From Escherichia phage vB_EcoP_SYGE1: DNA of 39,713 nucleotides. The DNA lies in sequence record MW883060; one strand, 5' to 3'. Both the position numbers and the translations under genes were made by a program. The notes beneath the pieces were generated by a model. It saw nothing but the letters and a program-made list of their open reading frames with translations. It was not told the DNA's origin and ran no database searches. Positions 18,385 through 29,021 of this stretch are shown piece after piece (position 1 is the first letter of the stretch; each line of letters starts with the position of its first letter).

Positions 18385-19993
18385 AAATACCAGGCTGTAA
18401 ACCTACGGAATCAGCAGCAGCAACCATAGCCTCAGGTGAAGCCGTAGCCTGTGCAGCCATACCTTGACCAAGCGCAGCAGCACCACTATCCATACCCATT
18501 TGCATAGACTGTTGAGCCATCTTCTGTTGCTTCTGTTCTTCGGTAAGAAGGATACCAGAAGTGTCAATACCGATAGCGTTAGCAATGCGCAACTTAATCA
18601 TCGCAAGGTTGATGTCAGGGTCATCACGCATAGGAGCAAGAGCAGCCCACGCAGCGACACAACGCTCCAGCTTATCAAGGTCTTGACCACGACCGATTGC
18701 TTCCAGACCTGTACTAATGGTTGGCTCTACGGCTTCCTTAGGTAACTCAGGAATCTGTTGCGTGGCTTGTAGTTGCTTCAAGAGCACTCGTACCAGAGGC
18801 AACTGTAATTCTTGAGAAAGGATTGAGTAGACACCACCTAAAGTATCTTCAAGTTCAGAAGCGACATACCGAATCTCTTCGGCGGTCACACGTTCACCTG
18901 TGCGCTGAACCGCAGAGTTCAACATAAAGGCAAACGAAAGGCGAGCCTCAATAGCGTCACTGACAGCCTTGGCTACAGTAAAGTCTGCTTGCTTCTCCAG
19001 TTGGAGGAACGAGATGTCTTCTGGACGACCGGTAACGAAGTCACCAGTCTGAGCTTTGGTCAGTCGGCGTGGCTGGGTGATACCAGCAGGATTCACTAAG
19101 CCGATAACCTTAGAGCTAATCATGGACATCTTGACGATAGCCTCTTGGAGATTCTCAAGGGACCGTAAGTCACCTAAGTATTCCTCAATGTACGAACGAC
19201 CGTAGGATTCACCGTCCAGACGAACCATTCGAATCGGGATGTATGGACAAGCATCTTTAGGATACGCCCCATCGGAGCCTTGTATCTCCATACCTTCAAC
19301 CTCTTCGTAGCGGAGATATTCGTCTGACTCTTCGTCCAAGTAGATGTGAGTGTACACATCAATGGTCTCATCAGGTTTCTTCTCACCGCCTTGACCTTCT
19401 ACAGCCTTACGGATGTCCTCAGGGAGAGCACCAAAAGCTATCTGGTCACGAGTCACCATTTGCAGAACGTTGCCGAATGCGTCTCGTTGGACCACATAAG
19501 AAGACAATCGGTACAGCTTCATGGGATTATAGTTTGACCCTTCTGGTTCCGGTAGATACAGCAAGACGTTACCCGCTACGACTAACTGCTTGAGAGCCTC
19601 AAAGAGAGTCACGCGGTAGCTGTTAGACTCAATGTAGTTCATGATGATACGCTCTACCATTGAGAGACCCTCATCGACCTTAGCGAGTCCATCGGGGTCA
19701 TTCAGTAACTGTTTGGCCTCATACTCAGAGATGGTCAGTTTCATCCACGTCTGCATCGGAAAGAGAGCCAGCATGAGCTTAGAGGCCAAGTTATTGAGAC
19801 CGCGAGCACCTACAGCTTGCCACGGAGTTGTGTAGTCTGTAGATGAGTTATCGGAGTCCTTAGGGAAGAGGGACGGAATGGTGTACTGAGCGCAGTTTTG
19901 AGCGCGAGTCTCATAAGGAGCGCGGTCGTTCTTCAATCGGTCATAAACGGACTTTGCGCCTTCCTCGGCTAGACCTGTACGCTTCTCAGCCAT
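18383..19993 (-). CDS. Head-to-tail connector (portal) gp8
   Basis: 536 aa with ATG start; position and length as T7 gp8. Confidence 0.9.
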   Translation of the reverse strand: MAEKRTGLAEEGAKSVYDRLKNDRAPYETRAQNCAQYTIPSLFPKDSDNSSTDYTTPWQAVGARGLNNLASKLMLALFPMQTWMKLTISEYEAKQLLNDPDGLAKVDEGLSMVERIIMNYIESNSYRVTLFEALKQLVVAGNVLLYLPEPEGSNYNPMKLYRLSSYVVQRDAFGNVLQMVTRDQIAFGALPEDIRKAVEGQGGEKKPDETIDVYTHIYLDEESDEYLRYEEVEGMEIQGSDGAYPKDACPYIPIRMVRLDGESYGRSYIEEYLGDLRSLENLQEAIVKMSMISSKVIGLVNPAGITQPRRLTKAQTGDFVTGRPEDISFLQLEKQADFTVAKAVSDAIEARLSFAFMLNSAVQRTGERVTAEEIRYVASELEDTLGGVYSILSQELQLPLVRVLLKQLQATQQIPELPKEAVEPTISTGLEAIGRGQDLDKLERCVAAWAALAPMRDDPDINLAMIKLRIANAIGIDTSGILLTEEQKQQKMAQQSMQMGMDSGAAALGQGMAAQATASPEAMVAAADSVGLQPGI

Positions 19994-20007
19994 GTGTCAC
20001 CTCCTGT

Positions 20008-20325
20008 TTAAATGTTGATGCCGCCACCGGAGCTACGGGCTACGCTCAAGGACTTCTTACCACCAGAACGAGCTTTCTTACGTCCGCTTTCGGTCTGTGC
20101 TTCGTCCTCCGTGGAAACCTCTTTCTCAGGTACGTCAACAATCTGTGCAGCAGGAGTTGCGGCAGCCGTTGGTTGCGGTACTTCAACTACCTGTGTTTCA
20201 CCAGCACCTGCCAGCGCACCAGCGACCTGTTTAATAGGACGAGTCACTTCCTTGGTAGCTTTCTTCACAGCTTTCGTAATTGGCTTTGTGGCTTTCTTCA
20301 CTACCTTCTTAACTTTCTTACCCAT
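20008..20325 (-). CDS. gp7.3 tail/host-range protein
   Basis: 105 aa, lysine-rich MGKKVKKVVKKATK... and a C-terminus ...ESGRKKARSGGKKSLSVARSSGGGINI similar to recalled T7 gp7.3. Confidence 0.8.
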   Translation of the reverse strand: MGKKVKKVVKKATKPITKAVKKATKEVTRPIKQVAGALAGAGETQVVEVPQPTAAATPAAQIVDVPEKEVSTEDEAQTESGRKKARSGGKKSLSVARSSGGGINI

Positions 20326-20328
20326 AAC

Positions 20329-20730
20329 TTATACCTCCTTAAAGTATACACGCATTGTCTCGCCTTCGTGTTTACAGCGGGACACCCAATCGCAATCGTG
20401 GAGTTCTGCAAGGTACTTAAAGCGTTTCGCTAGGAATCGCTGTAAGCCCTTAGAGTCTGCCTCAGGATTAATAACAACGGACGTAACGTCCAGAATGTCT
20501 CCCTTGTGGTGAATGTCACAGCTTACGCACCACGCTAAGTACGCTACATGTTTTCCTGTAGAGTCCAGAATGTACTCTTCACGACAACCAGACATGTCCA
20601 TTACTGCGTCCACGTAGAGGCTGTAACCTATGAAGTGACCTTCAAATCCCTTAGGCAACCCAAGGTGTTCCACAGTCCACCGAATTGCACGGAAGCGACT
20701 CTTGGCCTCCACACATGTGAACTCAGACAT
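20329..20730 (-). CDS. gp7 host-range protein
   Basis: 133 aa from ATG at 20728..20730 (MSEFTCVEAKSRF...); the track ORF begins one codon upstream at GTG. The start overlaps the gp6.7 stop (TGATG). Confidence 0.8.
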   Translation of the reverse strand: MSEFTCVEAKSRFRAIRWTVEHLGLPKGFEGHFIGYSLYVDAVMDMSGCREEYILDSTGKHVAYLAWCVSCDIHHKGDILDVTSVVINPEADSKGLQRFLAKRFKYLAELHDCDWVSRCKHEGETMRVYFKEV

Positions 20731-27071: not shown

Positions 27072-28494
27072 GTGCTTTACCTTTGTCTGGGTTCTTAAGG
27101 TGACAAATTACGACCAGCACCACCCCAGTTGACTTAGCGAACCCTTTGAGCTTGGTCATCAGGTTGTCAATCATCTTACGCTCATCTGATTCACCAGAAG
27201 CGGACACGACGATTGAGATGTGGTCTAGAATGATTACGTCACAGCCCAAGCCTGAGCGCATGTAGGCCAGCTTAGCTAGAAGCCTGTCGGTCTCAGCCTC
27301 AGCGAATGAGTCATATAGGTGGAACGCATCGTTGCCGAACAGTTCATCGAACCATTGGTCGAACTTACCGTTCTCAATAATCTCTCTCTTTAGTGAGTCG
27401 GATTGCCTCAGTCGGACACGGTTGTGTAGACCTATAAGGTCCTCAGCGGTCTCCTCAACGGACTCCTCAAGCATCGCTAAGCCTACCTTCTTGCCCATCG
27501 CTGTGCCCCATTGGAGAGCTTGTTGACGGACGAACGTTGACTTACCCATACCAGAACCGGAAGTGACCATAATGACTTCACCGCCACGGGCACCTAAGGT
27601 CTTATCGTTGATACCAGTGCAGCCACTGAAAAGTAAACCTACGGATTCCTCTGACGATAGGTGCTCACGGATTCGTTCACGTAACGAAAGAGCCGATACC
27701 ACACCATCAGGAATCCAAGGACCAGCATTCCACACTTGCTCCATGATTTCACGGTCGTGACCATTTAGGTGACACTCGTTGGCATCCTTACACGGAAGAA
27801 CTGCCACTCGTACCTTACCAGCAGGTAGAACCTGTGCGGCCTCTTCGACTGCTTTGCGTCCTGCTTCGTCCATATCGAACATCAAGATAATCTGTTCGAA
27901 CTGGTCAAAGTATTCGTAGTTGGCAGCGCATGTCTTCTTAGCGGCAGAGGCACCGTGACCCAACGACACTACAGGATACTTACAGTCTTGAAGTTCCATC
28001 ACGGTAAGCATGTCGATTTCACCTTCTGTGACGACAATCTTCTTACCACCATTCCACAGGTGCTTACCGAACAGAGCATCGCTCTTATGGCTTCCAGTGG
28101 TCTTAAAGTTCTTATCTTTATCTCGAACCTTCTGGCTCACAATGTTACCGTTCTGGTCCCGATAGTCAGCCACTTGGTACATCACACCGTCTACTTTGGC
28201 AGTCCAGTAGCCAGCCTTCTGACAGGTTTCCTTGGAGATTCCCCGCGCAGTTAACGCAGAGTAACGTCCATTGGACTCCCCAAAGTTCCATACGTTGTAT
28301 GTCATTGGTTTACCTCCACCGACTATACGTCTTCTTGATGATAGCTCCTGTTTGCGTTCTTCTGAGGCTGGAACCCTGTGCTCACATACAAAGCAAAATT
28401 GATGACCGTCAGAATACACTGAGTTACCATCAGAAGACCCACAGTTCTCGCAAGGAGCGTGATATAGGAAAATACTATCTTGCTCTAATTCCAT
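26794..28494 (-). CDS. Primase-helicase gp4A (566 aa); gp4B helicase from internal ATG at 28303..28305
   Basis: Near identical to recalled T7 gp4 from MTYNVWNF onward (Walker A GSGMGKST). The N-terminal zinc-binding region (CENCGSS...CFVCEH) appears divergent from T7. The internal start has a GGTGGAGG SD. Confidence 0.95.
27383..27405 (-). promoter_or_regulatory. Phage RNAP promoter phi4c, internal to gene 4
   Basis: Minus strand reads ...AATCCGACTCACTAAAGAGAGAGA. Confidence 0.75.
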
Positions 28495-28541
28495 ATGGTT
28501 ATTCCTTAATCAACATTGCGAACAAAGGGAAACCGTTGTGG

Positions 28542-28564
28542 TCTCCCTTTAGTGAGTTCAATTA
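28542..28564 (-). promoter_or_regulatory. Phage RNAP promoter phi3.8
   Basis: Minus strand reads AATTGAACTCACTAAAGGGAGACCACAACGGTTTCCC. Confidence 0.8.
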
Positions 28565-28565
28565 A

Positions 28566-29021
28566 TTATCCACGGTCAGAAGTGACCAGTTCGTTCTTCT
28601 CCCACCAACGCTTAAGGTCGAACGAAGGGCAAGCCTTAGGTGCCACGTCATGATGCGCCCGAAGCACAGCGCCTTCGTACTTAGCCAGCAGTGTGACAAG
28701 CAGTGAGCGGAGGGATTGCATTTGGGCTGGCGTAAAGTTAGCGTTAAACTTACCTTTATCGCCGATACCACCTACAAGGCAGACACCAATAGAGTTGTGA
28801 TTGTAGTCCTTAGCGTGAGAGCCTACAGCCATCTCATCTCGGCCTTCCTCCACAGTACCATCGCGCTTGATGATAAAGTGATACCCCACATCGAGCCAAC
28901 CTTGCTCTTTATGCCACTGGCGAATCTCACGGACACCTACATTCTGACTTGGCTTGGTAGCCGAGCAGTGAACAAAGATTGCGTCAGTAGATTCACGTTG
29001 TTTAAACTGTACACGAGCCAT
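28566..29021 (-). CDS. Lysozyme / N-acetylmuramoyl-L-alanine amidase gp3.5 (also the phage RNAP inhibitor in T7)
   Basis: 151 aa, MARVQFKQRESTDAIFVHCSATKPSQNVGVREIRQWH..., near identical to recalled T7 gp3.5. Confidence 0.95.
   Translation of the reverse strand: MARVQFKQRESTDAIFVHCSATKPSQNVGVREIRQWHKEQGWLDVGYHFIIKRDGTVEEGRDEMAVGSHAKDYNHNSIGVCLVGGIGDKGKFNANFTPAQMQSLRSLLVTLLAKYEGAVLRAHHDVAPKACPSFDLKRWWEKNELVTSDRG

Follow-up and report, generated by a model that had tools for sequence, protein, structure and literature searches.

The genome of Escherichia phage vB_EcoP_SYGE1 (sequence record MW883060; the whole stretch of 39,713 bases is called the window here) is that of a complete Teseptimavirus (T7-like phage) with its genes on the minus strand. 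We found that, compared with T7, it is without exactly genes 3.8, 5.3 and 7.7, and that it carries gene 2.8 and, in the DNA polymerase gene (gene 5), a group I intron. This is a difference in gene content, not a statistical signal, and chance is not at issue. Gene content, junctions, domain families, homologies and a link between flanking alleles and occupancy, all observed directly, make it very probable that the window carries a set of selfish endonuclease cassettes differing from that of T7, with homing and co-conversion as the proposed mechanism. The variation is real, already known and ordinary among T7 relatives: public records such as those of 13a and the BASEL phages already annotate the layout of the window.

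Three junctions lack the genes that T7 carries there

The alignment with T7 (V01146) spans the window end to end, at about 82-96% identity per segment (blastn). For the early and replication genes the nearest public relatives are Bas103, Bas104 and JeanTinguely (Bas64), at about 95-96% identity, and over the late half T7 and IME390 reach 92-94% identity; on the phage map, the best matches are Bas103 over the left half (about 95%) and T7 or IME390 over the right half (92-94%). No near-identical record was found in the phage collection searched. The junctions and the genes that border them are the following.

18383-19993, minus strand: gp8 (ORF list; ORF, open reading frame)
19994-20007, minus strand: empty 7.7 slot, a 14-nucleotide (nt) spacer, ACAGGAGGTGACAC, from the gp7.3 stop to the gp8 start
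20008-20325, minus strand: gp7.3 (ORF list)
23013-23031, minus strand: empty 5.3 slot, a 19-nt spacer, TTCTATAGGAGAAATTATT, from the gene 5 stop (23032) to the gp5.5 start (23012)
26748-26793, minus strand: empty 4/4.3 slot, 46 nt, holding phi4.3; an HNH gene lies there in Bas102, AH67C600_Q5 and N30
26794-28494, minus strand: gene 4 (ORF list)
28495-28565, minus strand: empty 3.8 slot, a 71-nt spacer from the gp3.5 stop to the gene 4 start (blastn, junction alignment)
28564-28542, minus strand: promoter phi3.8, inside the 71-nt spacer, 47 nt before the gene 4 ATG
28566-29021, minus strand: gp3.5 (ORF list)

A sequence-only reading of this DNA had described gaps of 14 nt between gp7.3 (20008) and gp8 (19993) and of 19 nt between gene 5 exon 2 (23032) and gp5.5 (23012), had placed phi3.8 at 28542-28564 just before the gene 4 start at 28494, and had stated that T7 holds genes 3.8, 5.3 and 7.7 at these three junctions. 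Both gaps are correct to the base, phi3.8 lies where it was placed, and the stated map agrees with the T7 record, in which 3.8 occupies 11225-11590, 5.3 occupies 16483-16839 and 7.7 occupies 19848-20240. The whole-genome alignment to T7 that had been proposed as a check puts the indel boundaries exactly at the three genes: the blastn matches break between window positions 28514/28479 and T7 positions 11213/11586 at 3.8, between 23031/23029 and 16468/16834 at 5.3, and between 19999/19993 and 19843/20240 at 7.7. The genes neighbouring the three slots are all intact and colinear with T7. The 71-nt spacer opens with T-TAATTGAACTCACTAAAGGGAGA, which places phi3.8, and in the 14-nt spacer the Shine-Dalgarno sequence serves gene 8 directly, whereas T7 uses this Shine-Dalgarno sequence for 7.7, with gene 8 being coupled via TAATG.

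The missing genes have not moved elsewhere in the window. With tblastn over all six frames, no homolog of T7 gp5.3 was found, and T7 gp3.8 and gp7.7 matched nothing but two paralogous loci, gp2.8 (29451-29870) and the intron ORF (23308-23703). A wider search for hidden cassettes with 11 endonuclease queries from T7, T3, 13a, Bas102, N30, AV103 and pO111 again gave only gp2.8 and the intron ORF, which bears out the earlier statement that these are the sole HNH-type ORFs; the homologs of 3.8, 5.3 or 7.7 whose presence elsewhere in the window had been named as the refuting outcome were thus searched for and not found. Nuclease domains were likewise absent from the window ORFs that lack a T7 counterpart and from the divergent tail fibre.

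The empty state is common among T7 relatives

We compared the 2.5-to-9 region of 13 relatives; the junction alignment covers 12 of them, as T3 could not be anchored there. Eight of the 12 have the 19-nt 5/5.5 spacer unchanged and 3 have it with one base different; T7 alone has 383 nt there. AV103 and UFV01 share the 14-nt 7.3/8 spacer exactly, and Bas103, Bas64, Bas104, N30 and WX2 differ from it by one base (7 of the 12 in total). Bas102 has the very same 71-nt 3.5/4 spacer as the window, and near-identical ones occur in AV103, pO111, UFV01, N30 and WX2; the ribosome-binding region of the window's spacer, TGATTAAGGAAT, is common to T3, which is also without 3.8. A junction census with a single query, running from the 3' end of the intron through exon 2 and the spacer to the start of gp5.5, found these parts contiguous in 22 records (20 distinct phages); the direct exon 2 to 5.5 junction was also present in at least 21 intronless records, e.g. 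phiA1122, YpsP-G, Pila and UFV01. Conversely, T7-type gp5.3 occurs in just 100 phage records, 57 of which are T7 or its laboratory derivatives, and T7 gp3.8 homologs (at least 60% identity) were found in 181 T7-like records out of roughly a thousand.

T7 relatives have at least seven fixed slots, each either empty or holding a small endonuclease gene: 2.5/3, 3.5/4, 4/4.3, the 4.7 site, the inside of gene 5, 5/5.5 and 7.3/8. In the window the 3.8, 4/4.3, 5.3 and 7.7 slots are empty, and 2.8 and the gene 5 intron are occupied. The cassettes carried are listed by phage.

T7: 2.8, 3.8, 5.3 (PD-(D/E)XK) and 7.7
T3: HNH 5.3 only
Window: 2.8 and the intron
Bas103, Bas64, Bas104 and WX2: the intron only
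AV103: the intron and an Endonuclease VII gene at the 4.7 site
Bas102: an HNH gene between 4 and 4.3, the intron and 7.7
AH67C600_Q5: 2.8, the 4/4.3 gene, the intron and 7.7
13a: a different HNH of 160 amino acids (aa) at 3.8, the intron and 7.7
pO111: a divergent 2.8, the intron and 7.7
N30: the 4/4.3 gene only
UFV01: none

Carriage is thus a mosaic over the 13 relatives, from zero cassettes (UFV01) up to four (T7, AH67C600_Q5), and what is seen is presence/absence polymorphism at fixed positions among colinear genomes, as expected of free-standing homing endonuclease genes. The presence or absence of homing endonuclease genes at the 5.3, 3.8 and intron positions of T7-like phages has been described (PMC4925675). 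Judged from the genomes compared, it is T7 that stands out, by its wealth of cassettes, and the window is in the common state, which reverses the earlier view of the window as odd relative to T7. The absence of 3.8 and 7.7 is unconnected with the intron, the sites being independent: Bas102, AH67C600_Q5, 13a and pO111 have both the intron and an HNH gene at the 7.7 site, and UFV01 has none of these elements.

Further variation was seen at and near the slots. The HNH gene between genes 4 and 4.3 lies at 4207-4632 in Bas102 (L010), 4223-4651 in AH67C600_Q5 (L011) and 4173-4628 in N30 (L017), and the Endonuclease VII-type gene at the 4.7 position of AV103 (L012) lies at 4774-5211. Right after gp3.5, Bas103 (L002, 2388-2473), Bas64 and Bas104 (L008, L009) have 86 extra nt, which encode a small hydrophobic peptide of about 27 aa at the position of T3 gene 3.7 and which the window and Bas102 are without. 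AH67C600_Q5 has lost most of phi3.8 and has a 39-nt spacer.

Flanking alleles track the occupancy of the slots

Three features of the window bear on the sequences next to the cassettes.

29451-29870, minus strand: gene 2.8, a free-standing HNH endonuclease gene (139 aa, GTG start; HNH_3 and zf-His_Me_endon), an occupied slot
28940-29470, minus strand: gene 3 (endonuclease I) and the first ~80 nt of gene 3.5, a T7-type allele linked to 2.8
28165-28494, minus strand: gene 4 codons 1-110, the allele of phages without 3.8, with nearly all informative sites Bas103-type

Firstly, we examined the occupied slot. Window gp2.8 has 97.8% aa identity to T7 gp2.8, and the gene is absent from T3, Bas103, Bas64, Bas104, Bas102, AV103, 13a, WX2, UFV01 and N30. 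Gene 3 beside it has 98.4% nt identity to T7 versus 72.6% to Bas103. About 115 informative sites in the gene 3 tract form an unbroken T7-type run (three match neither reference), and the sequence is Bas103-type from near 28940. Gene 2.8 with all of gene 3 (28940-29870, minus strand) hence makes up a T7-type tract of about 930 nt in a Bas103-like backbone, and it looks like a co-conversion tract acquired with the 2.8 gene.

Secondly, the empty slots show the opposite arrangement. Beside empty 3.8, gene 4 codons 1-110 have 74.9% nt identity to T7 versus 98.8% to Bas103, whereas the remainder of gene 4 is 96.8% identical to T7. Beside empty 7.7, gene 7.3 has 77.6% nt identity to T7 versus 93.8% to Bas103, and gene 8 codons 1-130 have 85.6% nt and 95.4% aa identity to T7 and 95.4% nt identity to Bas103, the change in gene 8 being mostly synonymous. 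Identity beside the slots is therefore set by occupancy and not by overall relatedness, T7 and Bas103 swapping places at 2.8, 3.8 and 7.7. A sliding-window profile dips against every phage that carries a cassette at a given slot, 4/4.3 included. Gene 4 codons 1-110, gene 7.3 and gene 8 codons 1-130 (28165-28494 and 19604-20325, minus strand) each fall into two divergent allele classes, which track the occupancy of 3.8 or 7.7.

Flanks are thus co-inherited with the cassettes, as free-standing homing endonuclease genes would bring about by co-conversion or by divergence of the target site in carriers. The pattern fits endonuclease-driven gene conversion with co-conversion, or target divergence in carriers. 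Elements of the T4 type are mostly GIY-YIG or HNH enzymes with mapped cleavage sites. The free-standing Seg and Mob endonucleases of T4-like phages, a different phage family from that of the window, are optional intergenic genes that track abrupt changes of flanking allele, as here ('Nuclease genes occupy boundaries of genetic exchange between bacteriophages', PMC10448857). Such behaviour of flanks and occupancy is described in general terms in reference 55 of PMC10448857 and in the BASEL paper (PMC8594841).

Gene 5 is split by a known type of group I intron

The polymerase gene of the window is divided as listed here.

23788-25746, minus strand: gene 5 exon 1
23188-23787, minus strand: group I intron of 600 nt, between the His653 and Asp654 codons
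23308-23703, minus strand: intron-borne HNH homing endonuclease ORF, 131 aa, I-TslI-like (Pfam HNH_3, E 6.7e-17)
23032-23187, minus strand: gene 5 exon 2

The insertion point corresponds exactly to the junction between T7 positions 16311 and 16312 (blastn) and falls in the VHDE motif. Removing the intron in silico restores the reading frame and gives a gp5 of 704 aa, identical to T7 gp5 at 691 of 704 positions with no gaps. The splice-site rules of group I introns are followed, exon 1 ending in U and the intron in ...AAAG (G), and the exon sequence GUGCAU can pair with a guide, GUGCAC, found 13 nt into the intron (P1 pairing, U-G wobble). At gathering thresholds, Rfam matched nothing in the whole window; with relaxed filters on an 800-nt stretch, RF00028 matched over its full length (positions 1-253) at 23198-23797 on the minus strand, scoring 37.1 bits (E 9.5e-8; the gathering score is 50).

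The intron ORF has 95-98% identity to its counterparts in 13a, Bas64, Bas103, Bas104, AV103, WX2, AH67C600_Q5 and pO111, 86% to that in Bas102 and 77% to that in K1F; a search of solved-structure sequences with it returned nothing at E <= 0.01. The exon sequences at the insertion site differ with the presence of the intron. Among intron-bearing Teseptimavirus genomes exon 1 ends in GGGTGCAT in 10 of 10 and exon 2 starts with GATGAGATTCAAG in 9 of 10, whereas the three intronless genomes T7, UFV01 and N30 all read GGGTACAT followed by GATGAAATCCAAG across the site, so that synonymous exon changes lie beside it in 10 of 10 carriers versus 0 of 3 intronless phages. Seen over 23775-23800 and 23175-23187 (minus strand) and in L002 and L008-L015, carriers have GGGTGCAT before and GATGAGATT after the intron, and intronless phages have GGGTACAT joined to GATGAAATC; the G of the carrier exon GTG completes the P1 pairing with the guide GUGCAC.

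The split gene 5 is already annotated in the GenBank records of 13a (EU734174), K1F (DQ111067) and the BASEL phages Bas64, Bas102, Bas103 and Bas104. These introns, of 600-601 nt with a 131-aa HNH ORF, are like that of the window, in the same host gene and at the same point in polymerase motif C; we see no difference of substance from the PhiI/W31 type, the PhiI and W31 sequences themselves lying outside the compared collections. The window intron is the one described by Bonocora and Shub in 2004, who are said to have reported self-splicing for PhiI and W31. By analogy with this published work on related phages, the window intron would be expected to splice.

Two unrelated proteins share the name gp5.3

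To call the three missing T7 genes HNH-like, as the sequence-only reading did, is right for gp3.8 and gp7.7 and wrong for gp5.3. HNH_3 was found above the gathering score in the intron ORF, in window gp2.8 (E 4.8e-6), in T7 gp3.8 and gp7.7 and in T3 gp5.3 (E 4.6e-19), and T7 gp2.8 is HNH_3 as well; the gene at the 4.7 site of AV103 encodes an Endonuclease VII. In contrast, T7 gp5.3 is a PD-(D/E)XK endonuclease (PF11645, E 1.1e-10, above the gathering score), with no HNH match in Pfam and no BLASTP similarity to any HNH protein tested. Its best solved-structure match is 2OST (E 0.013, residues 5-97), which we take to be the PD-(D/E)XK homing endonuclease I-Ssp6803I. T7 gp5.3 is thus a relative of I-Ssp6803I by Pfam and by structure match, and differs from it in being free-standing and shorter (118 aa); it has no homolog in the window.

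T3 gp5.3 is another protein. It has 47% identity to the window intron ORF over 95 aa (E 7e-31), and in a neighbour-joining tree the intron ORFs and T3 gp5.3 are sister groups, T3 gp5.3 being their closest free-standing relative. Its gene immediately follows gene 5, filling the slot left empty in the window, and it differs from the intron ORF in being free-standing, in its length (101 aa) and in lacking the C-terminal ~37 residues; it is absent from the window. On protein sequence, the window intron HNH shares its lineage with the free-standing gp5.3 of T3 and not with that of T7. One intergenic slot therefore holds two unrelated '5.3' proteins, at 16483-16839 in T7 (L003) and at 15168-15473 in T3 (L006).

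As to the phylogeny proposed by the sequence-only reading, T3 gp5.3 is sister to the intron ORFs, and T7 gp5.3 shows no similarity to the intron HNH. Its suggestion that free-standing and intron-embedded endonucleases are alternative states stands in so far as the missing genes are facultative cassettes, the window carries alternatives (the intron HNH and 2.8), and a homolog of the intron ORF does occupy the 5.3 position in T3. It fails for T7: since T7 gp5.3 is unrelated to the intron HNH, the intron ORF is not an alternative state of T7 gene 5.3.

The relation between free-standing and intron-borne enzymes was published by Bonocora and Shub in 2004 and 2009. In the 2009 work (Curr Biol 19:223) T3 gp5.3 and I-TslI are said to cut the intronless polymerase gene at the same position; for both enzymes, site-specific cutting of the allele without the cassette and one-way transfer in crosses have reportedly been published. 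The T3 gp5.3/I-TslI relation is summarised as collaborative homing in PMC10448857. A further report, in which 2.8, 3.8 and 7.7 were deleted together from T7, counts these as the three T7 homing endonucleases, in agreement with a non-HNH 5.3 (bioRxiv 10.1101/2025.09.07.674715). As to these three, window gp2.8 is nearly the T7 protein and comes with a T7-type gene 3, and the 3.8 and 7.7 slots are at the same positions as in T7 and differ in being empty; other relatives fill them with divergent HNH genes, such as the 160-aa gp3.8 of 13a and 7.7-site genes 47-72% identical to T7.

Proposed homing with co-conversion and its alternatives

Homing with co-conversion would proceed as follows. In a mixed infection, the endonuclease of a cassette-bearing phage would cut the cassette-free allele of a co-infecting relative near the slot, and repair would copy the donor cassette together with some flank, the carriers' own flanking sequence not being cut by the enzyme. 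The three tight junctions of the window would then be unoccupied recipient alleles and not anomalies. Cleavage specificities and homing activity are attributed here by analogy with published work on related phages.

Several points weigh against this explanation. The literature reached gave no cleavage or homing assay for T7 gp2.8, gp3.8, gp7.7 or gp5.3, and the homing role of these enzymes is put forward from their family, their distribution and the flanking-allele pattern. The data fit either direction of events: the window's slots may never have been invaded, or may have lost their cassettes, replaced through recombination with an empty allele. The Rfam score of the intron is under the gathering threshold, probably owing to the 396-nt ORF insertion in a peripheral loop. 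Finally, gp5.5 beside the 5.3 slot is very variable, and this variation does not track 5.3 occupancy.

Among the alternatives, the one that survives best is direct substitution, the suggestion of the sequence-only reading in its strict form: the intron HNH and any 5.3-slot gene would exclude each other as carriers aimed at the same gene 5 target, and 5.3 would be missing because the intron is present. We consider it possible, though rather doubtful. The kinship of T3 gp5.3 with the intron ORF and the common cutting position reported for the two enzymes speak for it, as do the 20 distinct intron-bearing phages with a direct exon 2 to 5.5 junction and the distribution over 17 genomes inspected: a 5.3-slot gene was present in none of 11 intron carriers and the intron in none of the four 5.3-slot carriers (T7, T3 and the T7-type carriers 64795_ec1 and YZ1), whose polymerase gene is uninterrupted, counts that are not independent since the sampled genomes are related, and 2 of the 17 have neither element. 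However, T7 gp5.3 is a PD-(D/E)XK protein and no kin of the intron HNH, and many relatives (UFV01, N30, phiA1122, YpsP-G, Pila) have neither element; the empty 5.3 slot therefore needs no intron as its explanation. Substitution moreover says nothing on 3.8 and 7.7.

A broader form of exclusion, which we hold to be unlikely, is that three unrelated elements (the intron with its HNH ORF, the T3-type HNH 5.3 and the T7-type PD-(D/E)XK 5.3) compete for the motif C target of the polymerase gene and exclude each other. On this reading, T7 gp5.3 is an as yet uncharacterised homing endonuclease, similar to I-Ssp6803I, that would cut intronless gene 5 near the intron site, and in the window the intron would have won the contest. 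The shared slot after gene 5 and the lack of overlap between 11 carriers of one kind and 4 of the other lend this slender support, these counts coming from related genomes and not being independent.

Recent precise loss, in which a T7-like ancestor with 3.8, 5.3 and 7.7 had each gene cleanly deleted in the degeneration phase of the homing-endonuclease life cycle, is very improbable. In its favour, loss of homing cassettes is a known phenomenon, T7 can dispense with the three genes (PMC12153263), and the 5/5.5 spacer includes CTATAG, the six bases that form the last codon and stop of T7 gene 5.3. Yet CTATAG is present in all 11 relatives without 5.3, the spacers are identical to those of many relatives, the ribosome-binding region at 3.5/4 matches T3, and tblastn detected no cassette remnants in the window. 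Above all, a local deletion would leave T7-type flanks, whereas gene 4 codons 1-110 and gene 7.3 are of the cassette-free type; because the flanks are the alleles of cassette-free phages, we reject recent local deletion. That the tight junctions are an artefact of misassembly or of a misread T7 map can be dismissed almost entirely: nothing was found in its favour, the three genes stand in the T7 record where the sequence-only reading had put them, the same junctions recur in many independently sequenced genomes, and the neighbouring genes are intact and colinear with T7.

Consequences for annotation and for phage biology

The finding matters little beyond correct annotation, for which it has two consequences. 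The T7 reference is unusually rich in selfish cassettes, and tight 3.5/4, 5/5.5 and 7.3/8 junctions in its relatives are the normal empty state. 'Gene 5.3' covers two unrelated proteins, and a gene number is no basis for homology. The flank pattern also predicts the regions that the enzymes would cut: gene 3 for gp2.8, the ~930-nt tract pointing to gene 3 of phages without 2.8 as the target; the first ~330 nt of gene 4 for gp3.8; and the boundary of genes 7.3 and 8 for gp7.7. Cassette content may in addition affect competition between phages and evasion of defence, the T7 HNH endonucleases having been reported to blunt the GAPS4 defence system (2025 preprint).

Other differences from T7

Outside the slots, three small ORFs of 69, 65 and 86 aa (38026-38235, 37841-38038 and 30942-31202, minus strand) are without a counterpart in T7 and gave no match in Pfam. 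Their locations are the early region (T7 genes 0.4-0.6) and the interval from gene 1.7 to gene 1.8; in that interval a 75-aa hypothetical protein is annotated in Bas103, Bas64, Bas104 and AV103. The tail fibre gp17 (3655-5607, minus strand, 650 aa) has the T7 N-terminal domain and a distal part unrelated to T7, which contains a gp37-type trimerisation region (PF20744); this divergence suggests a different receptor specificity. The gene 1.1/1.2 region (33435-33791, minus strand) has only about 39% aa identity to T7, and in JeanTinguely a divergent gp1.2 allele has been linked to resistance against exclusion by F plasmid PifA (BASEL paper, PMC8594841).

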